Made by a program: the position numbers and the translations under genes
The notes under the pieces: model-generated
The model's input: the letters and a program-made list of their open reading frames with translations, nothing else
What the model was told of the DNA's origin: nothing
Databases searched by the model: none
Virus record (IMG/VR): IMGVR_UViG_3300049324_000053
Reading direction: 5' to 3' (one strand)
Origin: a virus
Length of the DNA: 64,000 nt
In this document: one piece after another, positions 1,386-61,943 of the stretch
Layout of the letters: every line of letters begins with the position of its first letter
Position numbering within the stretch: the first letter of the stretch is position 1

Positions 1386-2963
1386 TCAGACCAGCCGGTA
1401 CAGGTCTGCGATCCGTTCGATGTCGGTCAGGTCGTCGATGCGCCGTGTCTGGTCGGCCAGCGCCTTGAGCACCGGCGTCACGCTCGCCGCGATCGACACG
1501 GTGAACAGCCGGAACCCCAGGCGCGTCTTGGTCGCCGCGAACTCGGTGGCGAACGCGCTGGCGGCGTTGATGTCCCACTCGCCGTCGGTCAGCAGCACCA
1601 CGTCCGCGGCGACACCCGGCTTGCCGAGCGGCCCCTCGATCAGCGCTGCCGCCTGCATCAGCGGTGCCGGCAAGTTCGTACCACCGCCGAACGTGTGCCC
1701 GGCCCACTCCAGCAGCCCGTCAAGGTCGGCGTCGGTGCGCCCACCGGGGAACTGCCAGCATCGCTGTTGACTGAAGCTACTGAAATTGATCAGAGCGAGA
1801 TCCCGGCGGCCGGTACGCGCCGTGTCCGCAAGCCCGAGCGCTATTGCCTTCGCCCACGCCTCCCGCATCACCCCACCGAGGTGTTCTTCCATCGACCCGG
1901 ACGTGTCGACCAGCACGATCAGCGCACCCTGCCCGGCACGTTCCACCCCGGCGTAGGCCCGCGTCAGCAGCTGCCCTTCCCCGAGGCGTGCGAGGAAGTC
2001 CAGGCGGGTGTGCCGGTTGGTCAGCGCCACCAGCTCGCTGCCGAGCACATCCGGTAGCCGGTCGGACAAGTCCACCCCGATGACCTCGTCACGGCCGGTG
2101 ACCACTTTGCGGGCCCGTTCGGTGTTCGCGCGTACCCGCACCCGGCCGATCAGATCCGCGAACTGCGCGAGGCGATGCGCGGACAGCTTTGCCAGCAGCG
2201 CCGCCCGCTCGGCGACGTCCACCGTGCCGCCCGCGCCCGGGTCCACGCCCCACGCTGCGAGCAGCGCCTCATGCGCCGCCAGCTTCGCGTCAGCAGCTTT
2301 CGCCGCCGCGTTCACCGCGGCCCGCATCCGGCTGGCGGCCTGCGCCGGCAACCCCTCGCTGGCAGCGTCAGCCTCCTCGGCAGCATCCAACGCCTGCGCC
2401 AGCGCTTCGACCGCATCCTGCCCGGCCGGTTCACTGCCGTCCGCCGGCGCCGTCTCGGTGCCGTCGCCGGAGGTGTCGGTCTGCTGTTCGGCTTGCGCCA
2501 GCGCCTCGGTCAACGCCGCCGCCGCCTGCTCGGCCGCCGCCGCCTGCCGCTGCTGATGTTCGGCGGCCGTCGACAGCCGTTCGGTCAGCACCGGCGCCAG
2601 CGTCAACGCCCCGATCGCCGCGCCGTACTCGTCGTGACGAGTACGTTCCCGTAGCTCCTGCACCGCGTGCAACTCGGCCAGCTGTCCGATCGCCGCTCGG
2701 TTTACCTGATAGCCGGTGGCCATCGCCGTCGGGTCCGCCAGTTGCGGCGCACCCTGGTACAGCAGCGCCAGTAGATCCGTCACCAGCTCCGGTGCATGAT
2801 CGTGCGCTTCGGCCAGTTCATCGGTCAGCGTGGCCAGGGCCGGAAGACTGTCCCGCAGCTCGGTCAGCATCCGTGCATCGAACCCGGTCGTGACCACCGC
2901 CTGCGTCGCGGTGCGTGCCGCCCGCCGGCCGAGGAACGCCCGCGCCCGGTCCAGCAGACTCAC
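1386..2963 (-). CDS. VWA domain protein (ViaA-like)
   Basis: MIDAS VDTSGSM, GGGTN, LLTDGE; start overlaps the AAA stop. Confidence 0.9.
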   Translation of the reverse strand: MSLLDRARAFLGRRAARTATQAVVTTGFDARMLTELRDSLPALATLTDELAEAHDHAPELVTDLLALLYQGAPQLADPTAMATGYQVNRAAIGQLAELHAVQELRERTRHDEYGAAIGALTLAPVLTERLSTAAEHQQRQAAAAEQAAAALTEALAQAEQQTDTSGDGTETAPADGSEPAGQDAVEALAQALDAAEEADAASEGLPAQAASRMRAAVNAAAKAADAKLAAHEALLAAWGVDPGAGGTVDVAERAALLAKLSAHRLAQFADLIGRVRVRANTERARKVVTGRDEVIGVDLSDRLPDVLGSELVALTNRHTRLDFLARLGEGQLLTRAYAGVERAGQGALIVLVDTSGSMEEHLGGVMREAWAKAIALGLADTARTGRRDLALINFSSFSQQRCWQFPGGRTDADLDGLLEWAGHTFGGGTNLPAPLMQAAALIEGPLGKPGVAADVVLLTDGEWDINAASAFATEFAATKTRLGFRLFTVSIAASVTPVLKALADQTRRIDDLTDIERIADLYRLV

Positions 2964-4147
2964 AACGCCACCATCGTCTCGGCGGTCTTACGGGCCGCGG
3001 GCTCCTTCATCCCCAACGAGATCATCAGCACGTGTGTCTGCACCGTCATCAGCAGCTCACAAGCAGCCGTGAACCGGCTGTTCGTACGGGTAGCGGCGTC
3101 CACCTCGGCCAGAGCCTCGGTGAACTTGCGCAGCTGTGCCTGCGCATCACCGGCCCACGCGGAACGCTTCTCGCGCGCCAGACCGTCCTGTTCGGAAAGC
3201 TGCCCGTACAGCACGTCGAGTGCGTCGGCGACCTCACCGATGATGCGCAGCTGCGGGTCGCCGTGTGCGTTGACCAGCTCCCGGACCGCAGGCAGATGTG
3301 CCGGGTCATCCCACAGCACATGCACCAGTACCGACAGATCCGCGGCGGCGACCGTGTCACGTCCCGACAGGAACGCCTGCGCCTGCAGCACCCGCACACA
3401 CATCGCCCACCGGCGGTCCGACGGAACGATCCCTTTGCGAGCCAGCCCGGTGCGTAGCGTCCACAACGTCGAGATGATCGCATCGGGGATGCGCACGGCA
3501 GGCACCAGCACGTCAGCGGCGGTGTGTAGTTCGTCCAGCGTCACCGTCGTCGGTGTTGTCGTGGCGGTAGTCGCGGCGCGGGTCAGCAGCCGCGCGAACG
3601 ACCCCGGTTCGCGCACATAGTCGACCGTCAGCCGGATCGTGAACCGGTCCCACACGGCTGCCAGTTCGGTCTCCAACAGTTCGTTGCTGGCCGAGAACAT
3701 GCTGATCAGTGGCAGGTCACGCCAGCCGGCGCCGTCGTTGAACCGGCGTTCTTCCATGACCGTCAAGTACGGGTTCACACTCGCTGGTCCCGCCTTGCCG
3801 ATCTCGTCGACGAACGCGACATCCGCATCGACGAGGGTGTCGGTGGTGCGCCGCACCCATTCGCCGGTGGCTTCGAACCGGGCGATGTCGATCGGTCCGA
3901 AGCTTTCCTCGCGAGGCAGCTGCCGATCCATCAGCACATGCCAATACCGCGCGTCGACGACACGTGCCGTCAACGCGCGGACCATCGCACTTTTACCGGT
4001 GCCGGGCGGCCCCAGCAGGAACGCGTGGGAGCGTGCCAGCAGTGCCACCGTCAGCATGTGCAGCGCCTCGTCGCGTTCGATGAACTGCCCTGCCAGTTCG
4101 CTGATGATGGTTGTCAGCTTCGAGGCCGTCGTCTGCGTGGTGATCAT
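2960..4147 (-). CDS. MoxR/RavA-family AAA+ ATPase
   Basis: GPPGTGKS, FVDEIGKA, ASNE, WDRF, SDRRW; ATGA overlap with the ligase stop. Confidence 0.9.
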   Translation of the reverse strand: MITTQTTASKLTTIISELAGQFIERDEALHMLTVALLARSHAFLLGPPGTGKSAMVRALTARVVDARYWHVLMDRQLPREESFGPIDIARFEATGEWVRRTTDTLVDADVAFVDEIGKAGPASVNPYLTVMEERRFNDGAGWRDLPLISMFSASNELLETELAAVWDRFTIRLTVDYVREPGSFARLLTRAATTATTTPTTVTLDELHTAADVLVPAVRIPDAIISTLWTLRTGLARKGIVPSDRRWAMCVRVLQAQAFLSGRDTVAAADLSVLVHVLWDDPAHLPAVRELVNAHGDPQLRIIGEVADALDVLYGQLSEQDGLAREKRSAWAGDAQAQLRKFTEALAEVDAATRTNSRFTAACELLMTVQTHVLMISLGMKEPAARKTAETMVAL

Positions 4148-5091
4148 GCTGCCGCCTCGATTCGGGGAACGTCGACCAGCTGGTCGATCGTGCAATCTAC
4201 GGGCGCGATGTCGTCGCGCAACGACAAAAAAACGGGATGCCGTGGCATCCCGGATGGTTCGAGCAGCGCCGACACGCTGATCTCTGCGACCTGCAAGCGT
4301 CCACGATCAATCCCGGCACGGACCCGGATCAACTCTTGGGTTGACAGCCCGGACCCGACACGGCCGAACTCGACCACACCGGCCGGGCCGACCAGCGCCA
4401 GCTGCAGCGCACCGAACGTCGCCGCTCGGCTGCCGTTGCCTGCTGTCGCACCGACGACGACCGCCGACACCCGATGTTCAGGCTTGAGTTTCACCCACGC
4501 CCCGGATCGTCCCGGCGCCCACACCGCGCTCGGCGCTTTGGCGACCAGCCCTTCGAGGCCACGCCGGGTCACGAACCGCCATGCGGCAGGTCCGTCGTGA
4601 AACTCGCGCACCGGCCGCAGCCGGATGCCGCGCAGCTGTAGCGCTCGCAGTGTCGCCGATCGGACCCGCTGTGGGGTGCGCCGCAGGTCCGCGCCGTCCG
4701 CGACGAGCACATCGAACGCGCAGTACGCCGCAGGCCACCGCCGCGCCGCCACCGTGATCGCCGCCGTGCTGGCCTGCGCATCACGCCGATGGGTTGCCGC
4801 GAAATCGGGCTTGCCGCCGGTGAACACGACCACCTCACCGTCCAGCGTCCAGACGCCGGCCGGGAACTTACGCGCCAGTGACGCGGTGATCTCCGGGAAG
4901 CGTGCGGTGGCGTCGAGACCGCGCCGGCCGGTCAACGTCACCCGGCCATGCTCGACGTGCGCGACCATCCGCACCCCGTCGTACTTCACCGAGAACAGGT
5001 AACCGCGAGACGCAAGCACGTCGATCGCCTCGGGGATGCTCGGCGCGATTCGCCGATGGCTCTCGGCGAGCATCACCAGCGGGGCGTTCAC
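4144..5091 (-). CDS. Minimal ATP-dependent DNA ligase (adenylation + OB domains)
   Basis: Motifs KYDGVR, LDGEVV, FDVL, EGLVAK, WVKLK, GRVGSG, RHPVF. Confidence 0.93.
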   Translation of the reverse strand: MNAPLVMLAESHRRIAPSIPEAIDVLASRGYLFSVKYDGVRMVAHVEHGRVTLTGRRGLDATARFPEITASLARKFPAGVWTLDGEVVVFTGGKPDFAATHRRDAQASTAAITVAARRWPAAYCAFDVLVADGADLRRTPQRVRSATLRALQLRGIRLRPVREFHDGPAAWRFVTRRGLEGLVAKAPSAVWAPGRSGAWVKLKPEHRVSAVVVGATAGNGSRAATFGALQLALVGPAGVVEFGRVGSGLSTQELIRVRAGIDRGRLQVAEISVSALLEPSGMPRHPVFLSLRDDIAPVDCTIDQLVDVPRIEAAA

Positions 5092-37950: not shown

Positions 37951-38691
37951 TCAGGTGTCCTGCGGGTAGCTGCCGATGCTTGTCATGGTATCGGTGCCGT
38001 CCGGCAGGGTGTGGATCTCGAAGTCACCGAACACCGCCGGTGCGTGCGCTTTCAACAGGCGGCCAAGCTGCACGGCCAGCGTCCGGATCTCCACGTCGGC
38101 GGCCGCGGACCCGCGCATCGCCAGCACGTGACGCCACGCCCGGTAGTTGCCGGTCACCACCATTCGGGTCTCGGCCGCGTTCGGCAGTACCGCACGCGCC
38201 GCCTGACGCGCCGCCTTACGCCGGGCGGTGCCCGCCGGCAGATCCTGCAGATGATCGTCGAGGTTGATCAGCAGTTGTTCGTAAGCGGCCTGCGCGGTGT
38301 GCGCGGCGTGCCGGAAGATGCCGCGCAGCATCGGGTCGCCGGCGATGACGTCGGGCATGATGAACGCCACGTCCCGGCTGTCGACATACCGTTGCGACAG
38401 CTGCGAGAAGTTCAGATGCCGGTGGCGCACCAGTTCGTGTGAGCAGGACCGTGAAATGCCCGTCACGTAGAAGCTGACCGACGCGTGTTCCAGGACCGAC
38501 AGATGCCCGACGTCCAGCAGATGTGCGATGTAGCCGGCGTTGGTGGCGGTCGCCGGATTCGGCTTGTTCCACGACTGGTAGCAGGCGCGGCCGGCGAACT
38601 CCACCAGCGCCGGGCCGTCGTCGGCGTCGGTGGCCCAGGGCACGTCGGCCGGTGGGGCGAAGATGGTGGCGGCGATGAGCTGGACGTGCAT
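37951..38691 (-). CDS. thyX: FAD-dependent thymidylate synthase
   Basis: [47 protein letters not shown]. Confidence 0.97.
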
Positions 38692-38730
38692 ACCCGCAGT
38701 ATCTCGTCCGCATCTGGGCAACAAGGGCGC

Positions 38731-39012
38731 ATGGGACTGCGCGGCGTGAGTGTCGAGAAATTCGGGCCCGGCGTGGAGATCACCGGCCGTACCGACGATG
38801 GCCGCAGCTGGCTGCTGCACACCGGCGACGTGCCCGGTGGTATCGCCTTGGAGGTTGTTCATGATCTGGACCCTGATGCCGACGAGGACGAGATCGACGC
38901 CCCCGACTGCCAGGTGCTCTACGCCGTCGACCTGCCGGCCGAGGCATGGGTCGCGCTGGTCAACACCGCGCTGTACGTGCCGCCGCCGGGCGCCGCGACG
39001 CTGCCGCTTTAG
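38731..39012 (+). CDS. Hypothetical protein
   Basis: RBS. Confidence 0.55.
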
Positions 39013-39248
39013 TCGGCTGCTTCGTACGTCGCGCAGAACACCTCGGCCGCGCACGGGTACAGCTCCCCGCCCGCGCCGCGCATCAGGTAGTCGCCGGCGC
39101 GTCCGGTCATCCGTCCTTCGAGGGTGTCGACAGCGAACGTCGTCGACATCTTTATCGCCTGCGTGAGGGTGGTCTTGCGGTAGGAGGTGAACACCAGGGC
39201 GCTGGGATCCGCGACGACGTCGTCGATGTAGAGCGTCGTCGGCTTCAT
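39009..39248 (-). CDS. PGDYG-like small phage protein
   Basis: 'TLEG.M....GDY...G..GELYPC...F..TYE'. Confidence 0.75.
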
Positions 39249-43215: not shown

Positions 43216-43587
43216 TTCAGCGTGACACCGGTGTGGGCAGCTGTGTTGATGCCGCGCGTGAGGTTCGCGGTGATGATGCAACCTGTCCGTGGAACGACTG
43301 TCGAGGACAGGTTGATTTTCTCTTCATCGTGCACATGTCATCCACATGGTCTGTGTTAAAGAACTGCTGAGAACACTTGGCTACACTGCAGGCGCCATGC
43401 AAACGTCATGCATGTCGACAGCAGAGCACCTACCTTCTGACCTGCGGTTTACCATGGCTTCATCTTGCAGGCGATACGTGGATCATCAGCGTGATGACAC
43501 GCCGGGACTGTGTATCCGGCACCCGGTGCATCTGGGCGTGGTATGCGATAAGCTCAACGCCCGACCCTCATGCAAGCAGGTGCCCGC

Positions 43588-44499
43588 ATGCCGACCACTC
43601 CACCCGACGACGCCCTGCGTCCCGTCCTGGACCGTGTCATCGCCCTGACCAACGGCAAAGGCGGTGTCGGCAAGACGTCCACCACCGCCGCCCTCGCCGT
43701 TCAGCTCGCCGAAGCCGGCCTACACGTCCTGGCCGTCGACCTCGACCCGCAAGGCGACCTTGCCGACGACCTGGGCTACATCGCGCGCAGCGACCTCGGC
43801 GAGAACCTGATGTCCGCCGTCCTGACCGGCCGGCCGCTGACCCCGCTGACCGGCGTACGCCCCGGCCTGGACGTCGTGCCCGGCGGTGCGCATCTCGAAG
43901 ACCTCGCCGACGCCCTCGCCGCGATGAACCGCCGGCGTGACACCCGGCTGGCGTTCGCGCGCAGCCTCGCCGCCACCCTCGCCGCCACCCATTACGACTT
44001 CGTGCTCGTCGACACCCCCGGCAAAGGCCCGGTCCTGCAGATGCAGGCCCTCGGCGCCGCCCGCTGGGTGCTCATCCCGTTCCGCTCGGACACCAGCAGC
44101 ATGAAGAACCTCGCCGAGGTCGCCCGCCGGTTCGAGGAGGTTGCCGACGTCAACCCCACCATCGCGGTGCTCGGCGTGTTCCTGCACGGCGTCACCGCCG
44201 GCGCGACCGCCGTCCGCCGCGACGTCTACGCCAGGATCCGGGAGTTGCTGGGCAACGGGGTGCCGATCTTGTCGTCCTGGGTGCGGTACGCCGAAGCCGC
44301 CGCCGTCGACGTGCGCGCCCGCGGCCAGGTCCCCGGGGAACTCGAACGGCTGCCCGCCGCCGGACCCTGGTACGCCCGGCTGCGTGACCCCGCACTGCCC
44401 ACCGGACCGGCCGCGAGCAGTGCCACCCTCGCCGGCGACTACCAGCACCTCGCCGAGGAGATTTTCACCCGCCTGAGCGCCGAGGAGACCACGTCTTGA
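43588..44499 (+). CDS. parA: ParA family partition ATPase
   Basis: NGKGGVGKTS, VDLDPQG, VLVDTP. Confidence 0.95.
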   Translation: MPTTPPDDALRPVLDRVIALTNGKGGVGKTSTTAALAVQLAEAGLHVLAVDLDPQGDLADDLGYIARSDLGENLMSAVLTGRPLTPLTGVRPGLDVVPGGAHLEDLADALAAMNRRRDTRLAFARSLAATLAATHYDFVLVDTPGKGPVLQMQALGAARWVLIPFRSDTSSMKNLAEVARRFEEVADVNPTIAVLGVFLHGVTAGATAVRRDVYARIRELLGNGVPILSSWVRYAEAAAVDVRARGQVPGELERLPAAGPWYARLRDPALPTGPAASSATLAGDYQHLAEEIFTRLSAEETTS

Positions 44500-45843: not shown

Positions 45844-46731
45844 TCAGCTGGTCGTCGGGTCCATGAACCGGGCGTACTCGCCCTGGAAGACGACGGGGAT
45901 GGTGCCGGTTTTCCCGTTGGGGTTCTTGGCCACGATCAGCTCCGCTTCCGTGATCTGCGGGTCGTCCGGGTGTCCTTGTTCCCGGTGGAGCAGGATGACG
46001 ATGTCGGCCTGTCGTTCGCTGGCATTGGACTCGTATAGGTCGGCCATTGTCGGGCGCTTTTCCGTCGCCGGTTCCTGGGGGTGTTCCAGTTGCGTGGTCG
46101 CCACGATCGTTACGTTCAGCTCCATCGCCAGCAGTTTGAGCGCCCGGCTGATGTCGGCGATCTCCAGATGGCGCGACTCGGAGTCCGGCGAGTCAAGCAG
46201 CTCCAGCCGGTCGATCACGATCAGAGCCAGTCCCGGATCGAAGTTCAGGCGGCAGGCTATCGCCCGGATCTGGGCGACAGTCGGGAATGGCGACCCGTCG
46301 ACGAAAAGCGGCGTGGTTTTCAGTTTCTCCAGCACCGGCGTGAGTCGTGCCCAGCCTTCGTCGCTGACGCATCTGTTACGTAGCTGCACCACCGGGACGC
46401 CGGCCTCAGCTGCAAGCAGCCGTTGTACGACGGCTGCATGGCTCATCTCTGGTGTAGCGAACAGTGTCGACACTTGATGCTTCATCGTGGTGTTGCGGGC
46501 GAAGCTCAGCGCGAGAGCTGATTTGCCGGCGGAAGCCCGCGAGCCTATGACAACGAGCTGGCCGGGGCGCAGTCCTCCGTCGGTGAGTTCGTCGAGCGCT
46601 GCGATCCCGGTCGGCAGGACAGCCGGCCGCGTACGGTCGGTTCGTTCTGCCGCCAGTCTGATCATGGTCTCTTGTAGTGCGGTGCTGATGTGGATGGGGT
46701 CTTTGCCGGGCGAAGCCTCGCTGGTCTCCAT
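45844..46731 (-). CDS. Truncated DnaB C-terminal domain paralogue (Walker A intact, Arg finger lost)
   Basis: PTGIAALDELT, GSRASAGKS, PEMS, IDRLELL, DLYESNASERQAD, KNPNG. Confidence 0.85.
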   Translation of the reverse strand: METSEASPGKDPIHISTALQETMIRLAAERTDRTRPAVLPTGIAALDELTDGGLRPGQLVVIGSRASAGKSALALSFARNTTMKHQVSTLFATPEMSHAAVVQRLLAAEAGVPVVQLRNRCVSDEGWARLTPVLEKLKTTPLFVDGSPFPTVAQIRAIACRLNFDPGLALIVIDRLELLDSPDSESRHLEIADISRALKLLAMELNVTIVATTQLEHPQEPATEKRPTMADLYESNASERQADIVILLHREQGHPDDPQITEAELIVAKNPNGKTGTIPVVFQGEYARFMDPTTS

Positions 46732-46779
46732 GGTCGTGACACGTTTCCTTCTTCGTGGTCGTTCGACGCGTACTGGTTG

Positions 46780-47835
46780 TTATCGGCCTTCGGAGGCGTG
46801 CTCCGTCGGCAGCTGGATGAATCGGCTGTAGTCATCCTGATAGAGCAGCGGCACGACACCGACAGGGCCGTTGCGGTGCTTCTCCAGGATCAGATCGACC
46901 TCGCCTGCCTGAAAGCCCTGTGGGTCGTAGGCCGCATCCCGGTGCAGCATGAGGACCATGTCGGCATCCTGCTCAAGGGTTCCGGACTCGCGCAGGTCCG
47001 ACAGCATCGGCCGGTCGCCCTTGCGCCGCTTGAGGTTGCGGTTGATCTGGGAGACGACGACCAGCGGCACATCCAGTTCTTTCGCCAGGTGTTTTAGTGA
47101 CCGGTGGGTGAGGGCGACGTCCTGATGGTGCTGGTCGGTGCGCTGAGCGTGCCGTAGCAGCTGCAGGTAGTCCACGATGACCAGCGACAGGCCGCGCTGT
47201 TGCTGCAGCCGTAGGGCTTTACTTCGCAGCTTGGCGACGGACAGGTAGGACGAGTCGTCGATGAGTAGTGGAACCGATTCCAGGGCGTCAAGATGACGGG
47301 TGAGGCGGATCCATTCCTCGTCGGACAGGTTGGGCTTCTTGTGGCGCATCTCCGGCAGGGGAATGCTTGCTTCGGCGGCCAGCACTCGTGTGGTGATCTC
47401 CGATTGGCTCGTTTCCAAGCTGAACAGTGCCGTCGTCTGGCCCTGCGCGATGGCAGCATGGCGGGCGAAGTCCAATGCCAGGGAGAACTTCGGAATGGTT
47501 CGTGGTCCTGCTATCACGATCAGCTGTTGCGCCCGTAGGCCGCCGCCGGTCAACCAGTCCAGCCCAGGGATGCCGGTCATCACCTGATCTGTCCGCTTGA
47601 CACCGTTCTGCTGGGCCCTGATCGCCTCTAACGTGGCTTGTACGCTTTCTCCGGCATGCACAAGGTTGCGCGTTGCGTGCGTTGCGGCGGTTGTCGAATA
47701 CATCACCGTCTGCCCGGGGGCAGCCGAGTCGTCCTCGTCGGTGGCGCGGGTGTAGCCGTACTGAGCCAGGTCCAGGCCGGCGGCCCGAGCCGCGCGCAGC
47801 AGTTCGGTCGGAAGCGTGATCCTCATCGGGCGCAT
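46780..47835 (-). CDS. CcdA-like N-terminus fused to a DnaB C-terminal domain (Walker A broken)
   Basis: MRPMRITLPTELLRAARAAGLDL; AGPRTIPKFS; DYLQLL, SQINR, DLRESGTLEQDAD, KHRNGP. Confidence 0.88.
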   Translation of the reverse strand: MRPMRITLPTELLRAARAAGLDLAQYGYTRATDEDDSAAPGQTVMYSTTAATHATRNLVHAGESVQATLEAIRAQQNGVKRTDQVMTGIPGLDWLTGGGLRAQQLIVIAGPRTIPKFSLALDFARHAAIAQGQTTALFSLETSQSEITTRVLAAEASIPLPEMRHKKPNLSDEEWIRLTRHLDALESVPLLIDDSSYLSVAKLRSKALRLQQQRGLSLVIVDYLQLLRHAQRTDQHHQDVALTHRSLKHLAKELDVPLVVVSQINRNLKRRKGDRPMLSDLRESGTLEQDADMVLMLHRDAAYDPQGFQAGEVDLILEKHRNGPVGVVPLLYQDDYSRFIQLPTEHASEGR

Positions 47836-47857
47836 GAGCGAAGTATGCCGATCGTTG

Positions 47858-49210
47858 TCAGTGGGCTGCTAGGTCCATGAACCGGCTGTAATGGCCCTGG
47901 AACGCGACGGAGATGACGCCGGTGGGTCCGTTGCGGTGTTTGGCCACGATCAGGTCGGCCTCACCTGCGCGGGGGCTTTCCGGCTCGTACATGTCCTCGC
48001 GATGCATCAGGATGATCACGTCGGCGTCCTGTTCGATGGCACCTGACTCACGCAGGTCCGACAGCATCGGCTTCTTGTCCGCCCGCGACTCCGGGTTGCG
48101 GTTCAGCTGCGAGAGCGCCACGACTGGTACATGCAGTTCCTTGGCCAGCAGCTTCAGCGACCGGCTCATCTCGGCGACCTCCTGCTGGCGTGATTCGGTG
48201 CGTTTGGTTGAGTTCAGCAGCTGCAGGTAGTCCACCACGATCAGCGCCAGATCGTTCTTCTGCCGCAGCCGGCGGGTCTTGGCCCGGATTTCGGTGATGG
48301 TCAGGTACGGCGAGTCGTCGACGAACAGCGGCGCCGCGGTCAGGTTCCCGTATTGCAAAGCGAGTCTGTCCCAGTCCTCGTCTTGCATCTTGCCGGCACG
48401 CAGTCGCTGCAGCTGGACGCGCGCCTCCGCGGACAGCAACCGGGTGGTGATCTCTGAACGGCTCATCTCCAGGCTGAACAGTGCAGCAGCTTTCCCGTGA
48501 CGCAGCGTGGAGTTGCGTACGAAGTCCAGCCCGAGGGTGGATTTGCCGACTGCGGGACGCGCCGCGATGATGATCAGTTGCCCGGGGTGCAAGCCATTGG
48601 TGAGGTTGTCCAGGTCCGTGAAGCCTGTGGGCACCCCATGGGCCTTGCCGTCTTCCTTTTGGCGTGCCTCGATCTCCTCGATGGTGGGCTGGATCAGATC
48701 ACTGAGACGGACGACGTCCTGGTTCATCTGCTGCTCGGCGACGTCGAACACCGCCGCCTGCGCCGCGTCCACCATGTGATCAATGTCTGGTGATGGTGCG
48801 TAGCCGAGCTGCACGATGCGGGTGCCGGCCTCGATGACGCGCCGTGCGATGGCCTTCTCGGACACGATCTGGGCGTAGTACCCGGCGTTCGCCGCGGTCG
48901 GTACCGAGTTGATCAGCGTGTGCAGGTAGGGCAGGTCGCCGGCGCGGACGAGCTGGTCCTGGCGTACCAGCTCTGCTCCCACGGTGACGACGTCGGTGGG
49001 GATGTTGTCGGTGAACAACCGCACGATCGTGTCGAACACGATCGCGTGCCGTGGCAGGTAGAAATCGGCGCCGCGCAGCACCTCGACGACGTCGGCGATG
49101 GCGTCGGTGCTCAGCAGCATTCCGCCCAGAACGCCCTGTTCAGCGGCCTCGTCGTGCGGCGGGGTCCGGTCGAACGTGCGGTTCGCGCCGTTCATGTTCC
49201 CGTCGGTCAT
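47858..49210 (-). CDS. dnaB: Replicative DNA helicase, full length
   Basis: PPHDEAAEQGVLG, AARPAVGKS, SLEMS, DYLQL, SQLNR, DLRESGAIEQDAD, KHRNGP. Confidence 0.97.
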   Translation of the reverse strand: MTDGNMNGANRTFDRTPPHDEAAEQGVLGGMLLSTDAIADVVEVLRGADFYLPRHAIVFDTIVRLFTDNIPTDVVTVGAELVRQDQLVRAGDLPYLHTLINSVPTAANAGYYAQIVSEKAIARRVIEAGTRIVQLGYAPSPDIDHMVDAAQAAVFDVAEQQMNQDVVRLSDLIQPTIEEIEARQKEDGKAHGVPTGFTDLDNLTNGLHPGQLIIIAARPAVGKSTLGLDFVRNSTLRHGKAAALFSLEMSRSEITTRLLSAEARVQLQRLRAGKMQDEDWDRLALQYGNLTAAPLFVDDSPYLTITEIRAKTRRLRQKNDLALIVVDYLQLLNSTKRTESRQQEVAEMSRSLKLLAKELHVPVVALSQLNRNPESRADKKPMLSDLRESGAIEQDADVIILMHREDMYEPESPRAGEADLIVAKHRNGPTGVISVAFQGHYSRFMDLAAH

Positions 49211-49796
49211 CCATGCTCCCTTGCTGGTGCCAGGAGCGACAGCCTACGGGCCGCGAAGGAAGCACCGGGAGCAGACGGGGCGGGCGTCATTGTCCAGCCA
49301 AGGCTCGCCGTCGGACGTATCGGCAGGGTCTCCGCATGTCGCGCAGCGGTCCGCCGGAGGGCTCGGATCCGGGGGGGTGCTCATGGCTTCGAGTGTGCCG
49401 TACCGGCGTGTCCACGGTGGGGGTACTGCGCGACGGCGGCAGGATGCGCTAGGGTCGTCGATCAGGCCACCTGGCCTGAGAAATAAATGAAGACCCAGCA
49501 TCGACGCCAATCTGCGCTGGGCCTTCATACGAACTTCGAGCTGAGAGCACTCTACATGCCATCTTCTGGGCTGTGCAACTCGCCGGGCGCATCGCGCCGC
49601 GAGTCCTCATCTCGTTCACCTGCCGTCGCGGGCGTTAACGATGTCGTAACCGACATGGCGCCTACCGCAGGTGCATTGATCATGACAATAGAAGAAGCCC
49701 CCGCAGCTTCGCCGGCCAGTGGGGGCTTCTTCTTCCAACCGAACCCACGAGACACACGAAGGACCGAAAATCTGACCGTGTGTCACGAAGGACCGA

Positions 49797-51608
49797 ATGA
49801 GCATCAGCTTAGCTTCTACGCAGCCCCCTGACCATCACTATGGTGTGGCGTCCGTCACTGAACAAGTGCGATGGTTCGCCACTGATCTGAACATTCGGAA
49901 CGCGGCTCGTGACGCATTGTGCGGACATGGTCGCATCGGGTCATTCGCTGACTGTGTCCTGGAACGGATGCGTCTGCTCGTCGACTGGCGTGAACCGCTG
50001 GCCATGGTGCCCGGCGCGCCGTCGGGCACCGACCCCACCGGCGGGCACAGCATCCATTCACGCGCTCAGCTGCTCGGCGTGCGTCATGAGCATCTGGCCC
50101 GGGTCGAAGCGCTGCTCGTCGCACACCAGCTGGCCCTGTACGACACCGACGGCAGCCTGCGGATCGCGGCCTGGAAGCTCGCCGGCCGCCAGTCGGCCAA
50201 CAAGCACCGTTACGGCCATGTGCGGACCACGCAGTCGACCTACGACAAGTGGTGGCAGGCGCTGCTGGACGCCGGCCTGCCATCCTTCGTGCGGTATCTG
50301 GTCTTCGGTGCGCTCGCCGCCCTGGAACGTGATCCGGCGTTGACCGGCGACGACGGTGAACTGCTGTGCGATGTGATCTCCACGGCCGAGCAGCTACGGA
50401 TACCGCGCAGCACCTGGGCGCGCTGGCTGGTGCTGCTCGTCAAGCATGGGGTGCTGATGCGGATGGGGCGCGGCCGGTACCGGCTGGTGTTCGACGCGGC
50501 GGTGCGCCGGCGGCCGGCCTTCCTGCTGGTCACGACGCCATCGGTGTCGTCGCTCGTCGAGGCGGCCGACGACGAGGCGGCCGACCCAGCTGGCGAGACG
50601 GCTGACGAACCGGCCGACGACCCGGCCGGCGACCCGGACCGAACGCTCGTTGAGGCGCCGCGAACTCTCACCGGCGGAACACGATCAAGCTTCCAGGGGG
50701 GTGACGAGAGCGTTTGGGCTCTCACCGGCGCAGAATCGCACCGCTCTGACCTGCGGGTTCGCGGCCCTGTAGAAGCAAAAGAATCTTTAAAGGAAGAAGC
50801 TAAAGCTGCACAGCTACGAGCAAGCTCAGGCTTCTTCCTCGATCACTTCAAAGAGCCGGCCGGGCGGCGGGTGCGGGCGCTGCTGGAGATCCTCATGAGC
50901 GTTCGTCTCGACCTGGCGCCAAGGATGACCGATTCGTTCCCGTTGCGCCGGGCGCTGGGCGACGTCATCGCCGCCGGTGACGAGCTGAACTACCCCGACT
51001 GGCGGGTCTGCCGCGACGTCAAGGAGCACTGGATTTACTCCGCGGACACCGTCGGTGGCGTGGTCTACGCCATGAAGGCGCTGGCCAAGGACTACCAGCA
51101 GCTACGCGACCGCAAGCAGGCCGCGGCGGCACGCCGCCGGCTGCTCGATGCCGACCAGGTGCCTTCAGCTTCGCCGAAGCCGACCGCCGAGCAGCTGGCG
51201 GCCGCCGATGCCGCGCTGGCCGCCAAGGCGGACGCCAACGAGGCCGCTGTTGGCGCTCAACAGGCCCAGGCTGCGCGAGAACGGGCTGCTCAGGCGCAGG
51301 CGTTGGCTGCGCGGGAGGCAGATCCGAATTCGTCGTTCAACATGATCAGGGCTGCCGGCGCCGCGGCGAGGCGGCAGGACGAGCGTCGTACGGCGGTGTT
51401 CGCTGCGCTGCGCGCCGCCGAGCAGAACCAACTGGCGAGGCGACTGGTGCCGGGCGAGTCGCGGGGCCCGGCGTGGAAGCCGTTGCCGGAGAGGGTGGCG
51501 AGGTTGGTGCTGGCCGAACTGGACAAGCGTTGCGGTGCGGATGCGCCGGCCGCGCGGTTGATCGCGTGCGCCAGGACGGTGCTCGGTGGGGAGAGTGCGG
51601 TCGCATAA
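49797..51608 (+). CDS. Putative replication initiator (wHTH)
   Basis: 603 aa; 'TAEQLRIPRSTWARWLVLLVKHGVL'; divergent from dnaB; internal A-rich tract. Confidence 0.55.
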   Translation: MSISLASTQPPDHHYGVASVTEQVRWFATDLNIRNAARDALCGHGRIGSFADCVLERMRLLVDWREPLAMVPGAPSGTDPTGGHSIHSRAQLLGVRHEHLARVEALLVAHQLALYDTDGSLRIAAWKLAGRQSANKHRYGHVRTTQSTYDKWWQALLDAGLPSFVRYLVFGALAALERDPALTGDDGELLCDVISTAEQLRIPRSTWARWLVLLVKHGVLMRMGRGRYRLVFDAAVRRRPAFLLVTTPSVSSLVEAADDEAADPAGETADEPADDPAGDPDRTLVEAPRTLTGGTRSSFQGGDESVWALTGAESHRSDLRVRGPVEAKESLKEEAKAAQLRASSGFFLDHFKEPAGRRVRALLEILMSVRLDLAPRMTDSFPLRRALGDVIAAGDELNYPDWRVCRDVKEHWIYSADTVGGVVYAMKALAKDYQQLRDRKQAAAARRRLLDADQVPSASPKPTAEQLAAADAALAAKADANEAAVGAQQAQAARERAAQAQALAAREADPNSSFNMIRAAGAAARRQDERRTAVFAALRAAEQNQLARRLVPGESRGPAWKPLPERVARLVLAELDKRCGADAPAARLIACARTVLGGESAVA

Positions 51609-52886: not shown

Positions 52887-53054
52887 GCGCGAGCGCGCAC
52901 CTCGCTGCGCGCTCGGTTCGGACTCGACACGCCGCCTGGGGGGATGGGCGTGGAGAATTCCGGGTAACCGCAAGACCCCCTTTGACGTGGCGCAGCCGTG
53001 GCGATGGCACCCGCCCGCGGCTGCGTCACACCCCCCGGCACGAAGGACGACATC

Positions 53055-53447
53055 ATGCGCCGCATCATCGAGCAGCTCACCGACGACCTGACCGACGCAC
53101 CCGCCGACGAGACCGTGCGCTTCGCGCTCGACGGCACGAGCTACCTCATCGACCTGACCGCCGACAACGCCAAGACGATGCGGGAAGCGTTCGCGGCGTA
53201 TGTCGAGGTAGCTCGCCGGGACAGTGCACCGGCCACCGGCGGCCGCGCGGCGGCCCGCGGCGGCGGCCGGCGGGTCACCGCGGCCGCGCAACGTGCCGCG
53301 CGCAGCGCGTATCTGCAGTCGGTGCGGGCCTGGGCCCGGGACCACGGTTACACGATGTCGGAGTTCGGGCGGGTACCGGAGTCGGTGCTTGCCGCGTACG
53401 GCGAAGCGACCGGCGTGCACAGCCCCGACGATCTGACCGACGTCTGA
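53055..53447 (+). CDS. lsr2: Lsr2 family protein
   Basis: DDL, ETVRFALDGTSYLIDLT..NA, VRAWARDHGYTMSEFGRVP..V.AAY. Confidence 0.92.
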   Translation: MRRIIEQLTDDLTDAPADETVRFALDGTSYLIDLTADNAKTMREAFAAYVEVARRDSAPATGGRAAARGGGRRVTAAAQRAARSAYLQSVRAWARDHGYTMSEFGRVPESVLAAYGEATGVHSPDDLTDV

Positions 53448-58665: not shown

Positions 58666-59202
58666 GTGGGACGCGCCGACTTCGACAACGCCAAAAAGCT
58701 GTACCCCAGTGTCAACATGGGCGAAGCCGAATGGTTCGCCTATTTTCAGACCCCCGCCGGCGAACAAGCCATCGGCTACATCATGCGCGACATCTACGAC
58801 GAGGTGCTCGCCCTGGAAGAACGCGACACCGGCCGCGTGCCCATGGGCCGGCGCGCCGCCCGCCCCGCCGTGCCGCTGTCCACCGTGTACGCCAAAGTGT
58901 TCCCCCCCGCTTACAGCAACGAACCGTTCCCCGTGGCGCTGCGCACCCTGATGAACGGTCGTTCGATCCGCGCGTTCGCCGCGAAAGTTCCCATGGCGCA
59001 CGTCCCGCTGCACCGGCTGCTGGCCGGTGCCGACACCCCGGACCTGCGGCTCATGGAAGCCATCGCCGCCGCCGCCCGCGTCAAGCCAACCTACTTTTTG
59101 GAATACCGCGCCCAGTTCGTCGCCCTCATGGTGCAGCAAGCATTTCTCGCTCGCCCGCATCTGTCGATCCGTGCCATCCATGACCTGAAAGTGACCGCCT
59201 GA
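58666..59202 (+). CDS. XRE-like HTH protein coupled to terminase
   Basis: 'SIRAFAAKV.M....LHRLLAG...P....MEAIA......PTYF.EYR'. Confidence 0.65.
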   Translation: MGRADFDNAKKLYPSVNMGEAEWFAYFQTPAGEQAIGYIMRDIYDEVLALEERDTGRVPMGRRAARPAVPLSTVYAKVFPPAYSNEPFPVALRTLMNGRSIRAFAAKVPMAHVPLHRLLAGADTPDLRLMEAIAAAARVKPTYFLEYRAQFVALMVQQAFLARPHLSIRAIHDLKVTA

Positions 59203-61943
59203 TGACCGCCAAGGCGATCGTTGCGCCCAACGAAGAAGAGTCCTATCTGGTGGCGCTGCTCGACTCGATCGACGGCATCGACCTGGCCGAGGCATTCTGG
59301 TCGGACCCGTCCACCGCGACCGGCTGCTTTCGCGTCTGGGACTTTCAGTGGAAGTGGTTCACCTGCACCGACACTTTGCAGGCTGATCAATGCGGGCGTG
59401 GTGTCGGCAAATGTCTCGCCCCCGACACCCGCCTGACCCTCGCCGACGGTCGTCGTATTCGGGTTGCCGACCTTGCCGCCGCGACCGACCCCACCGCGAT
59501 CCTGGCCACCGTCGCCCGCGCCGACGACGCCGTGCACGGGTTCGAACTACGACCCGGCACTGTGTACGTTTCCGGACATAAGGCGTGCCTGCGGATCCGC
59601 ACCGTCAGTGGCCGGATCCTGACCGTCAGCACCGACCATCCGGTGTTCACGAGTACCGGCTGGCGCAAGGCCGGCGAACTGGCCGGCGACGACTCGCTCG
59701 CGATCGCCGCCTACCAGCCGGTGTTCGGCCGCAAGGTGCTGCCCCGCTATCTGGTGCGGCTGCTGGCACACGTTATCGCCACCGGCGGCGTCGGTGACCG
59801 ACCCCGCGACGTGTGGTACTCCTCGGCCGACGCCGGTACCGACACCAGCTACTACGACGACCTGGACGCCACCCTTGGCGCTGCCAAACTCGTCGCCCGG
59901 CCCGTCTCTCGCCGCGACCGCATGATCAAAATTGTGGGGGAACGGTGCGGCCCCGGCAACGGCATCGGCCCGTTCATGGCCCAGGCCGGCATGACCGGTG
60001 CCCGCGCCGGCACCATGCGCATCCCCGACCTGGTCTTCGCCCTGCCCGCCCGGCAGCTGGCCCTGTTCCTCGGCCGGCTACTGCAACCCCCCCACGGTGT
60101 TGCCGTGCGCGCCGGCACCGTGCGCTATCAGTGCGCCAACCCGGCGATGGCCGCCGACCTCGCGCATCTGCTCACCCGGTTCGGTGTCACCAGCCGGATC
60201 CGCAGCAAACTGCTGCCGTCCATGCGGGGCCGCACCCGCACCGACGCCCGCATCCAGGTCGTCACCATCGACGACCCTGCAAGTCTCGTGCGGTTCGCCG
60301 CCGTCGTCGGCCCCCACGTGCTCGGCGGCACCCGCACCGCCCTCGACGCCCTGGTCGCCGGCCTGGACCCGGCCGCGTTCACCGCGGCCGCTGCCCCGCC
60401 GGTCGTGGTGTTCGACTCGGTCGCCGACATCACCGACGCCGGCGAACAGGATGTCTATGACGTGACGATGTCCGGCGAACCACAGCTGTTCGCCGACGAC
60501 GTGCTCGTGCACAACTCCACGAAAATCATCATGCGCGGGTTCGCGCATCCTTTCCACGCCCCCGGCGAGCACATGTTCATCACCGCCCCCGAGCTGAACC
60601 ATCTGGGACCGCTGACCGACGGGCTGCAGAACCGGTTCGAAGGCACCCGTATCGGCGCCGAGATGATGACCAAAGGCCGTGGTGGGGGCATCACCAAGCA
60701 GCCGCACTGGCAGGCCCAGTTCCTCAACGGCGCGAAGATCATCACCCGGCTACCGAACCGGGACGGCCGCGGCGTCAAAAGCCAGCATGCCAGCAAACTG
60801 CACCTCGACGAGGCGCAGGACTATCCCGCCGCCGGCTGGAACGAAGTCCAGCCCACCTTCAAACGTGGCGTGCCCGGCGCGCAATGGCATGTGCATGGCG
60901 TTCCCCGCGGTGTGCGGGACAACTTCTACGCCATCACCAGCGACGAGTCCAAGTTCACCGTGCACCGGTATTTTGCCTGCCACCGCCCGGACTGGTCGGA
61001 CAACGAACGGGCCGAGGCCATCCGCAACTACGGTGGTTCGCCGCGGGATCCTGATTACAAGCGCAACATTTTCGGCGACCATGGTGATGCGACGAACCCG
61101 CTGTTTGTGTTGTCTCGGTTCATTGCCGTCTGCGACCTGGACCCTGGCAGTGACTACAACACCGCCGTCTACGCCGCCCGGTCCCTCAGCGACGAACTGC
61201 TCGCCGACCACGACCTCGACGCCCTGCTCGACCTGCCCGCCATCCACCGCATCGGCTATAGTCGCGCACCCCGCGGCTACAGCGCTTACTACGGCGGCAT
61301 GGACGTCGGCATGACGAATCACCCATCCGAGGTGTTGATCTTCGGCCAGCGCACCGGCACCGAGCTGATGGAGCTGCTGCTGCGCGTGCATATGGAGCGT
61401 GTCGACACCGAGCGTCAGGTGATGGTCGTGCAGCGGCTGTTCGACTTCTACGGCAGCAAGCTGATCGCGTTCGCCCTGGACAGGACCGGTATCGGTCACT
61501 CCGTGTGGGACCTGTTGGACAAGTCCTACGTCGGGGATCGGGTGTACGGGTACCACTTCAGTTCGAAGGTCCCGGTTGGTATCCGGGAAGCGGCCGAGGG
61601 CGAGGATCCGCACGACCTCGACGCGCTCATCGAGATGCGCGACCTGGTCGAACACGCCTCCGACGTGCTGCGCGTGGACTGGGTCGACGCCGGCCGGCTG
61701 CAGCTGCCCGCTGATGACGAGCTGCTCGGTGAATGGCAGGGGCAGACGTACAAGGTGGAGAAATCCGGCGGAAACCTCTACGGCAAAAGGGTGTATTCCA
61801 AGGGAAAGATGCACACCTTAGACGCAGGCAAGATGGCGGCCGCGGCAAAGACATTGCCGCCCATTCAGGATGCCATCGACCGGGCCCGTGCGGTGCACGA
61901 CGTCGACCCGGTGTTCGACGAGTTCCTCGGATCGTCCTGGTGA
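59202..61943 (+). CDS. Terminase large subunit with intein
   Basis: Walker A GRGVGK|S split by an intein; Walker B LHLDEAQD; nuclease GMDVG, LDRTGIG, HTLDA. Confidence 0.85.
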   Translation: MTAKAIVAPNEEESYLVALLDSIDGIDLAEAFWSDPSTATGCFRVWDFQWKWFTCTDTLQADQCGRGVGKCLAPDTRLTLADGRRIRVADLAAATDPTAILATVARADDAVHGFELRPGTVYVSGHKACLRIRTVSGRILTVSTDHPVFTSTGWRKAGELAGDDSLAIAAYQPVFGRKVLPRYLVRLLAHVIATGGVGDRPRDVWYSSADAGTDTSYYDDLDATLGAAKLVARPVSRRDRMIKIVGERCGPGNGIGPFMAQAGMTGARAGTMRIPDLVFALPARQLALFLGRLLQPPHGVAVRAGTVRYQCANPAMAADLAHLLTRFGVTSRIRSKLLPSMRGRTRTDARIQVVTIDDPASLVRFAAVVGPHVLGGTRTALDALVAGLDPAAFTAAAAPPVVVFDSVADITDAGEQDVYDVTMSGEPQLFADDVLVHNSTKIIMRGFAHPFHAPGEHMFITAPELNHLGPLTDGLQNRFEGTRIGAEMMTKGRGGGITKQPHWQAQFLNGAKIITRLPNRDGRGVKSQHASKLHLDEAQDYPAAGWNEVQPTFKRGVPGAQWHVHGVPRGVRDNFYAITSDESKFTVHRYFACHRPDWSDNERAEAIRNYGGSPRDPDYKRNIFGDHGDATNPLFVLSRFIAVCDLDPGSDYNTAVYAARSLSDELLADHDLDALLDLPAIHRIGYSRAPRGYSAYYGGMDVGMTNHPSEVLIFGQRTGTELMELLLRVHMERVDTERQVMVVQRLFDFYGSKLIAFALDRTGIGHSVWDLLDKSYVGDRVYGYHFSSKVPVGIREAAEGEDPHDLDALIEMRDLVEHASDVLRVDWVDAGRLQLPADDELLGEWQGQTYKVEKSGGNLYGKRVYSKGKMHTLDAGKMAAAAKTLPPIQDAIDRARAVHDVDPVFDEFLGSSW
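59412..60515 (+). mobile_element. Intein (368 aa) with degenerate LAGLIDADG homing endonuclease
   Basis: CLAPDT start, 'STDHPVF' block B, 'VYDVTM...LFADDVLVHN|S' end. Confidence 0.93.

Follow-up and report, generated by a model that had tools for sequence, protein, structure and literature searches.

Two short DnaB paralogues with reciprocal active-site defects downstream of a complete dnaB gene on a plasmid-like element

Introduction

What becomes of a replicative helicase gene that has been duplicated next to itself, and could shortened copies of such a gene come to serve the ring from which they derive? The question is raised by a 64,000-nucleotide stretch of DNA from IMG/VR virus record IMGVR_UViG_3300049324_000053 (hereafter the window, meaning the whole stretch analyzed), in which a complete dnaB gene (copy 1) is followed on the same strand by two shorter dnaB paralogues (copies 2 and 3). 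An earlier note on positions 45,844 to 49,210, made from the letters alone, had described the two short genes as carrying complementary defects in the ATP site. It had proposed that their products might share one hybrid site or cap the two ends of an open DnaB ring, and so act as a loader, a regulator or an inhibitor of host DnaB, and had added that its author knew of no such system. To our knowledge, all described bacterial DnaB helicases are homohexamers that are loaded by unrelated proteins (DnaC/DnaI, DciA, and phage lambda P). The ATP sites of DnaB are composite, with the P-loop supplied in cis and a Lys/Arg finger in trans (10.1101/2024.11.09.622779). In what follows, evidence is presented that the short copies were formed at this locus and have been kept as proteins, and that they are possibly partners of the helicase encoded beside them.

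Two short paralogues follow a complete dnaB gene

Re-translation confirmed three tandem open reading frames (ORFs) on the minus strand, comprising dnaB and two open paralogues that carry the DnaB_C domain only, at the coordinates first reported for them (Table 1). All three proteins match Pfam DnaB_C, with E values of 9e-104, 5e-75, and 1e-65 for copies 1, 2, and 3, respectively. The N-terminal DnaB domain (PF00772), which forms the collar and contacts primase, was found at residues 17-118 of copy 1 and is absent from copies 2 and 3. Measured against the curated cut-off of TIGR00665 (385.25 bits), copy 1 passes with 530.8 bits while copies 2 and 3 fail with 294.9 and 236.8. Alignment, Pfam, and AlphaFold2 models all support the first description of the short copies as a linker helix and a RecA-like C-terminal domain that have lost the N-terminal domain. 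Over these parts they match solved DnaBs with E values of 1e-46 to 1e-59, and the modeled linker helices span residues 61-76 of copy 2 and 15-34 of copy 3. A remnant of the N-domain hairpin survives in copy 2 as well, the alignment with Bst DnaB starting near residue 110. The C-terminal domain of copy 2 is modeled with a predicted local distance difference test score (pLDDT) above 90 and its residues 1-80 with low confidence; the mean pLDDT of copy 3 is 85. Both short copies match phrog_243 (E values 2e-36 and 7e-34). Their matches in Pfam and NCBIfam are limited to DnaB_C, AAA_25, and KaiC-type RecA folds. Membership of a known helicase-loader family (the AAA+ proteins DnaC/DnaI, DciA with its DUF721 domain, or lambda P) is therefore rejected, a result that is still compatible with a loader-like action.

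The gaps that separate dnaB, copy 2, copy 3, and a downstream ribbon-helix-helix (RHH) gene are 22, 48, and 33 nt long, respectively. No terminator-like sites were found on the minus strand between these four genes, and a ribosome-binding-like motif, GAAGGAA, lies upstream of copy 3. Given gaps of 22-48 nt and the lack of terminators, the short copies are probably co-expressed with the full helicase, and the arrangement is consistent with co-transcription.

The short copies have lost different halves of the ATP site

Catalytic residues were mapped on Geobacillus DnaB (2r6a/4esv), with residue roles taken from the literature (10.1101/2024.11.09.622779). Copy 1 carries both a Walker A GK[ST] and the Lys/Arg finger. 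The Walker A of copy 2 reads AGPRTIPKFS, in which K116 aligns on Geobacillus K216 but is preceded by Pro instead of Gly and followed by Phe instead of Thr, giving P-K-F for G-K-[ST]; its catalytic Glu, Walker B, H3, H4, and K-x-R finger (KHR, within KHRNG) are intact. Copy 3 has kept a GxxxxGKS P-loop (GSRASAGKS), the catalytic Glu, and the Walker B Asp, its Walker B reading DRLEL. It has lost the finger Arg, the Asn-Arg of H3, the Arg and Gly of H4 (the H4/DNA-binding loop reads DLYESNASERQAD), two residues of EQDAD, and the Tyr and Gln of DYLQL. The Pro of its finger motif KNPNG aligns on finger R420 of Geobacillus DnaB. The reciprocal motif states claimed in the earlier note were thus recovered exactly on re-translation.

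Because copy 2 lacks the P-loop and copy 3 lacks the trans finger, the firm conclusion from the motifs is that neither short copy can assemble a competent ATP site from its own subunits alone. Copy 2 is predicted to be unable to bind nucleotide in cis, and copy 3 to be unable either to supply a trans finger or to grip DNA normally. To assess the wider pattern of loss, 114 alignment columns were chosen that all three copies share and in which 78 actinobacterial DnaBs show at least 95% invariance. Of these, 110 are retained in copy 1, 77 in copy 2, and 71 in copy 3, and the losses of copy 2 are enriched in the P-loop segment (6/8, p=0.014).

The short copies arose in place by tandem duplication

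The three copies group together as one clade (support 99) in a tree that includes 78 relatives. The end branches of the short copies measure 1.53 and 1.64, compared with 0.27 for copy 1; the short copies thus evolve many times faster. Under a site-heterogeneous mixture model, with the two long branches entered separately, either short copy was placed nearest copy 1, without strong support. The nearest relatives of copy 1 are chromosomal dnaB genes (66% identity), which lie in the context S6-SSB-S18-L9-dnaB and have no short copy downstream.

The junction left by duplication can still be read. A segment consisting of the last 45 nt of copy 1, the spacer, and the first 70 nt of copy 2 shares 80% column identity with the segment consisting of the last 45 nt of copy 3, the spacer, and the first 70 nt of the RHH gene. 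The similarity between copy 2 and the RHH gene ends after codon 24, with 15 of the 24 residues identical, such that copy 2 begins with the RHH beta-strand and half of the first helix, fused to DnaB from the N-domain hairpin onward. An interpretation of residues 1-24 as mere DnaB hairpin was rejected, as the DNA match to the start of the RHH gene is much stronger than that to copy 1. Such a chimeric start is what a tandem duplication would leave if its breakpoints lay within dnaB and a short way into the RHH gene, and the short copies arose in place by tandem segmental duplication. Several of the 15 shared codons differ synonymously, including AGG versus CGC, which suggests that the RHH-derived N-terminus of copy 2 is translated and constrained.

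A chromosomal-type dnaB would, on this evidence, have been captured by an actinobacterial plasmid-like element, where two duplications in place followed. The first, reaching from mid-dnaB to the start of the downstream RHH gene, would have produced a chimeric copy without the N-domain, and a second would have produced the other short copy (copy 3). Even if the copies are mere duplication debris, the locus shows cleanly how tandem duplication builds chimeric genes.

Both short copies have been maintained as proteins

All three copies show the coding pattern of a GC-rich genome, with a GC content of 0.77-0.85 at third codon positions (GC3) versus 0.40-0.46 at second positions (GC2), and the indels in their alignment are all in frame. 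Their pairwise amino-acid identities are 44%, 45%, and 36%, at third-position identities of 0.41-0.52. Pairwise omega among the copies was estimated at 0.46-0.68 by the NG86 and LWL85 methods, values that are biased by the GC3 skew, and the argument for selection therefore rests on neutral simulations. These used the local base composition, were driven to the observed third-position divergence, and comprised 200 runs. Amino-acid identity fell to means of 13-17%, with a maximum of 28%, and none of the 200 runs reached 44%, compared with the 44-45% observed. Freedom from stop codons was retained in 6-8% of the runs at the observed third-position divergence, and in about 5% of a separate set driven to amino-acid identities of 45-60%. 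The short copies, moreover, keep 62-68% of family-invariant positions but 15-19% of variable ones. Both are maintained as proteins by purifying selection, which is much relaxed in comparison with that on a working DnaB.

Relatives, and parallels on Streptomycetaceae plasmids

No orthologue of either short copy was recovered in a word-indexed search of 5.8 billion proteins, in which the matches were the window's own proteins followed by ordinary DnaBs of at most 50% identity, and an exhaustive phmmer scan of 1.84 billion representatives yielded no orthologue of copy 3. The only other contig with the locus is identical to the window, and no near-identical plasmid was found in PLSDB. Several candidates were considered and rejected. 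A 330-residue protein (P0004) that resembled a short parallel is a chromosomal dnaB product in an S18-L9 context and was probably mis-called. Two stand-alone short DnaB_C proteins (P0288 and P0249) were not accepted as orthologues, being encoded on mobile-element-like contigs, not beside dnaB, and having mostly intact motifs. A Nocardiopsis changdeensis plasmid with two dnaB matches (NZ_CP074135.1, L016) was set aside as a concatemeric assembly; over its 26.9 kb the same gene order (MazF-family toxin, ParA, DUF2637, and others) is repeated with identical protein accessions, making it an apparent concatemer of a replicon of about 13.5 kb. A separate observation concerns a metagenomic protein of 573 residues (P0240), in which two tandem DnaB_C domains occupy one polypeptide, as in KaiC; the first has GKT, while the second carries GE where GK is expected and lacks the finger Arg, so that the protein is a fused pair of an intact and a dead DnaB core.

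Two families of short, P-loop-dead DnaB_C paralogues, here called A and B, were found on Streptomycetaceae plasmids, mostly directly downstream of a full dnaB and annotated generically as "DnaB-like helicase C-terminal domain-containing protein". Family A is represented on three plasmids (NZ_CP108537, NZ_CP099469, and NZ_CP108656; loci L001, L012, and L013) and retains none of the catalytic motifs, with the P-loop lysine, H3, H4, and the finger among those lost. Family B was detected by tblastn on seven plasmids, of which five were examined (NZ_CP109406, NZ_CP108736, NZ_CP108710, NZ_CP108842, and NZ_OX419521; loci L002, L008, L009, L010, and L011). These have the conserved non-P-loop sequence SRSREAQ, Asp for the catalytic Glu, and degenerate H3 and H4, and in four of the five the finger KDRSGP, the only catalytic motif that the family conserves, is strictly conserved. 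Omega between family B orthologues is 0.27-0.37, in keeping with purifying selection. Families A and B are unrelated to each other and to the window's short copies, with identities of 19-29% over all these comparisons; with the window's copies they share 21-29%, no higher than with any DnaB. Searches by tblastn with family A or B queries retrieved no relatives of the window's copies.

Pseudo-ATPases derived from DnaB hence arise repeatedly next to plasmid dnaB genes and can be maintained by selection, and their recurrence on Streptomycetaceae plasmids raises the prior probability that the pair in the window is functional. One plasmid of Streptomyces canus (NZ_CP108710, L009:1379-4445) is of particular relevance in that its operon runs from DUF6083 through DUF721 (the DciA loader family) and dnaB to a short P-loop-dead DnaB_C paralogue. 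The presence of DUF721 there implies that the short paralogue is not simply a loader substitute.

Possible roles of the pair

The reading that we tentatively prefer is that the short copies are DnaB-derived accessory subunits, unable to act alone, which would work together with copy 1. They would dock onto each other and onto copy 1 through surfaces of the C-terminal domain and through the linker helix, which in DnaB tethers the subunits to one another. In the preferred order, which is a matter of inference only, copy 3 would sit on the P-loop face of copy 2, so that the dead P-loop and the dead finger share a single, permanently nucleotide-dead interface, while the outward faces (the finger of copy 2 and the P-loop of copy 3) would remain able to build live sites with DnaB. 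This order is favored because a finger that points into an already dead site is freed from selection, which is the presumed origin of the non-catalytic interfaces in F1-ATPase-type rings. One doubly dead interface fits the usual joint decay of neighboring subunits, and the computed data do not discriminate between the two possible orders.

The opposite order corresponds to the proposal of the earlier note, which considered this arrangement only, and in which the P-loop of copy 3 and the finger of copy 2 would make one live site between dead outward faces, and the dimer would cap an open DnaB spiral as the end subunits of clamp loaders do, serving as a loader or ring breaker. It draws on the same motif data, which would place the sole competent site inside the dimer and so make the dimer switchable by ATP. 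Also in its favor, the neighboring ORFs tested (part of the window's ORFs) included no DciA (DUF721) or DnaC-like gene. It requires, however, two interfaces inactivated separately, by one defect each, a less parsimonious solution than a single interface with both defects, and the S. canus plasmid pairs its short dead paralogue with a DUF721 (DciA)-dnaB operon. This arrangement is considered unlikely.

If the pair is instead an accessory to copy 1 with a single dead interface, that interface would form a fixed seam in the plasmid helicase and might act as a built-in gate, as an adaptor for assembly or loading, or as a brake on translocation. Hand-over-hand translocation of DnaB requires that the breach circulate around the ring (10.1101/2024.11.09.622779). 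A fixed dead seam would favor ring opening and assembly while hindering such translocation, so that a role in loading and assembly, or in throttling, is more likely than that of a translocating subunit. A further version of this reading, namely that the half-dead pair inserts into the plasmid DnaB ring and offers one permanent nucleotide-free interface as a gate for loading without a loader of the DnaC or DciA type, is judged unlikely. Were it true, the unrelated short dead paralogues beside dnaB on Streptomycetaceae plasmids would have reached the same solution independently.

Several points weigh against a specific role alongside copy 1, and some of these also favor the alternative that the copies are mere by-products of tandem duplication, open and translated but drifting to loss. 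The short copies are singletons known from one locus, with no orthologues among the 5.8 billion or the 1.84 billion proteins searched. Their branches are extremely long, a third of their invariant residues have been replaced, and their omega values are high. In so GC-rich a composition about 5-8% of neutral simulations stay free of stop codons, and related short paralogues on other plasmids are sometimes broken. One family A copy (L012:3486-4312) is split by a frameshift, so that such paralogues are evidently also lost, and one family B copy is broken at its C-terminus. Copy 3 has lost residues of H3, H4, and the finger at a rate not significantly above its general loss rate of 38% (9/22, p=0.46), though key residues were struck. 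If each copy randomly loses one of seven key catalytic residues, a complementary split between cis and trans elements would be expected by chance about 40% of the time, by our estimate. The complementarity rests on one locus and, although real for the key residues, is statistically not compelling. Finally, ATPase-dead subunits generally poison ring helicases, as in doping experiments with T7 gp4 and DnaB, and co-expression of such copies could be harmful.

Set against simple drift are amino-acid identities far above those of the neutral runs at the observed silent divergence, the preferential retention of conserved positions, the in-frame indels and the coding pattern of GC content across the three codon positions, and the 15 of 24 RHH-derived residues that copy 2 keeps despite synonymous changes. 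Decay without function is accordingly judged rather improbable, if less so than the hybrid-site cap. With respect to what had first been proposed for the pair, it stands that the short copies are under selection, are not autonomous, and retain the linker helix; their complementarity, as set out above, may be a product of chance. Neither the junction with the RHH gene nor the recurrence of degenerate short paralogues on Streptomycetaceae plasmids figured in the earlier note.

Two further explanations would assign the pair an activity other than assisting copy 1. In one, the short copies would be dominant-negative poisons of the host's chromosomal DnaB, or of the DnaB of a rival replicon, to which copy 1 is resistant, and would thereby serve take-over, incompatibility or competition. 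ATPase-dead subunits that lack the N-domain and keep the linker helix would be expected to co-assemble with a DnaB ring and poison it, and the element's DnaB, only 66% identical to its closest chromosomal relatives, would leave room for specificity. The copies nevertheless derive from copy 1 in the same operon-like array, which makes the element's own helicase their closest structural match, and no defense or anti-defense families were matched. Membership of a known defense system was rejected, PADLOC giving no match, and poisoning of a foreign helicase appears distinctly unlikely.

In the other, copies 2 and 3 would alternate in a heterohexamer like the alpha3beta3 ring of F1-ATPase, with three live sites (the P-loop of copy 3 with the finger of copy 2) and three dead ones, and would run as a motor without copy 1. 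Their motifs match the catalytic and non-catalytic interfaces of such an alternating ring exactly, and DnaB-type cores without the N-domain can be active helicases (PMC4523182). The DNA contacts of H3 and H4 are, however, degenerate in copy 3, so that DNA could be gripped by one subunit in two at most; the circulating breach needed for hand-over-hand movement would be stopped by fixed dead sites, and no precedent was found in the DnaB family. A second motor of this kind is very improbable.

Neighboring genes and the nature of the element

A parA partition ATPase gene, convergent with the dnaB array, marks the dnaB region as a replicon maintenance module (Table 1). The RHH protein matches CcdA with an E value of 4.9e-5 and 24 bits, against a cut-off of 22.4, through its N-terminal residues 3-39 only; no CcdB-like toxin was found among the neighbors of its gene, and it is more likely a small RHH regulator than the antitoxin of a toxin-antitoxin pair. 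The region upstream of dnaB, which is common to a divergent gene for a protein of 603 residues, contains a 13-nt perfect inverted repeat, AGAAGAAGCCCCC, with an 18-nt spacer (49690-49733), a second inverted repeat of 11 nt that is 91% complementary, and a 14-nt exact direct repeat with its units 29 nt apart (49755-49797). These repeats are candidate operator or origin elements and possibly a target of the RHH protein. The only relative recovered for the 603-residue protein is a distant metagenomic one (43% identity over half the length), and none was found on plasmids; by its position the protein is a candidate for the replication initiator of the element.

The locus sits on a 145-kb contig, and the GC content of the window is 62-71%. 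In addition to the genes in Table 1, the window encodes a RuvB-like ATPase and a DUF932 protein. It contains no tRNA, and no phage structural match was obtained among the ORFs tested. An Lsr2-type protein points to an actinobacterial host, and the element is read here as a large actinobacterial plasmid or plasmid-like element.

Table 1. Positions of the dnaB array, its motifs, and other features of the window
Feature	Position	Strand	Basis or remark
VWA protein, MoxR-type AAA+ ATPase (bpMoxR), and ATP-dependent DNA ligase, in a row	1386-5091	(-)	
ThyX (flavin-dependent thymidylate synthase)	37951-39054	(-)	Unmatched N-terminal extension of ~140 residues
parA partition ATPase	43570..44499	(+)	Pfam
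RHH gene, CcdA-like N-terminus, 88 aa	45544..45810	(-)	Last gene of the tandem; PF07362
Copy 3, DnaB paralogue without N-domain, 295 aa	45844..46731	(-)	DnaB_C only
Copy 3, broken finger KNPNG	45913..45927	(-)	Re-translation, alignment
Copy 3, degenerate H4/DNA-binding loop DLYESNASERQAD	46003..46041	(-)	Invariant-column count, re-translation
Copy 3, intact Walker A GSRASAGKS	46519..46545	(-)	Re-translation, alignment
Copy 2, DnaB paralogue without N-domain, 351 aa	46780..47835	(-)	DnaB_C only
Copy 2, intact beta-hairpin Lys/Arg finger KHRNG	46867..46881	(-)	Re-translation, alignment
Copy 2, degenerate Walker A AGPRTIPKFS	47482..47511	(-)	Re-translation, alignment
Copy 2, RHH-derived first 24 codons (duplication junction)	47764..47835	(-)	DNA and protein alignment
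Copy 1, full-length dnaB, 450 aa	47858..49210	(-)	All motifs intact; PF00772 and PF03796
Region upstream of dnaB, 586 bp	49211..49796		Shared with the divergent 603-aa gene; contains repeats
Orphan of 603 aa, Ala/Arg-rich towards the C-terminus (candidate initiator)	49797-51608	(+)	No family match
Lsr2-type nucleoid-associated protein	52998-53447	(+)	Dimerization and DNA-binding domains
ORF of 913 aa with intein	59202-61943	(+)	LAGLIDADG-type insert at residues ~70-440; extein unmatched in Pfam/NCBIfam

Comparison with known systems

Full-text literature searches returned no description of short, dead DnaB partner proteins of this kind, in agreement with the earlier note. The theme of paralogous dead subunits in ring ATPases is a known one, and it is for the DnaB family that no description was found in these searches. 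In comparison with the canonical homohexameric DnaBs of Geobacillus (2r6a/4esv), Vibrio cholerae, and E. coli, copy 1 is a regular member, whereas copies 2 and 3 lack the collar and primase-binding domain and each lack one half of the composite ATP site. Among mycobacteriophages, DnaB-like proteins that consist of the RecA core only, without the N-terminal domain, are also known (phrog_243), and in work on Wildcat gp80 a truncated core could still unwind DNA (PMC4523182). Those proteins are stand-alone helicases, active or presumed to be so, unlike the short copies described here, each of which is without one catalytic half and is encoded beside a full dnaB.

The closest parallels are provided by families A and B of the Streptomycetaceae plasmids, which are likewise short, without the N-domain, dead in the P-loop, and located beside dnaB; family B, moreover, shares with copy 2 a retained K-x-R finger. 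They differ in that a single short copy, not a pair, is present at each locus and in being far more degenerate, with the catalytic Glu, H3, and H4 lost as well. Short dead DnaB_C paralogues beside plasmid dnaB genes have arisen at least three separate times in actinomycete plasmids, with at least one family conserved, and this recurrence suggests that the control of plasmid replication includes a genuine level that has so far gone unstudied.

More broadly, the alpha and beta subunits of F1/V1-ATPase, Mcm2-7 with its Mcm2/5 gate, the clamp loaders, and the Rad51 paralogues all show that duplicated subunits specialize, some interfaces staying catalytic and others dying, and that the dead ones take on a use as gate, cap or structural seam. 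These complexes are ancient and conserved and have biochemically defined stoichiometries, while the case in the window is young and confined to a single locus; their folds and families also differ from DnaB, except in the RecA-like cases of F1/V1 and Rad51. Helicase-derived, half-dead partner subunits, should the short copies prove to be such, would be a bacterial counterpart of Mcm2-7 and of the alpha and beta subunits of F1-ATPase, here in the DnaB family and at an early stage that is still readable because the duplication junction has been preserved.

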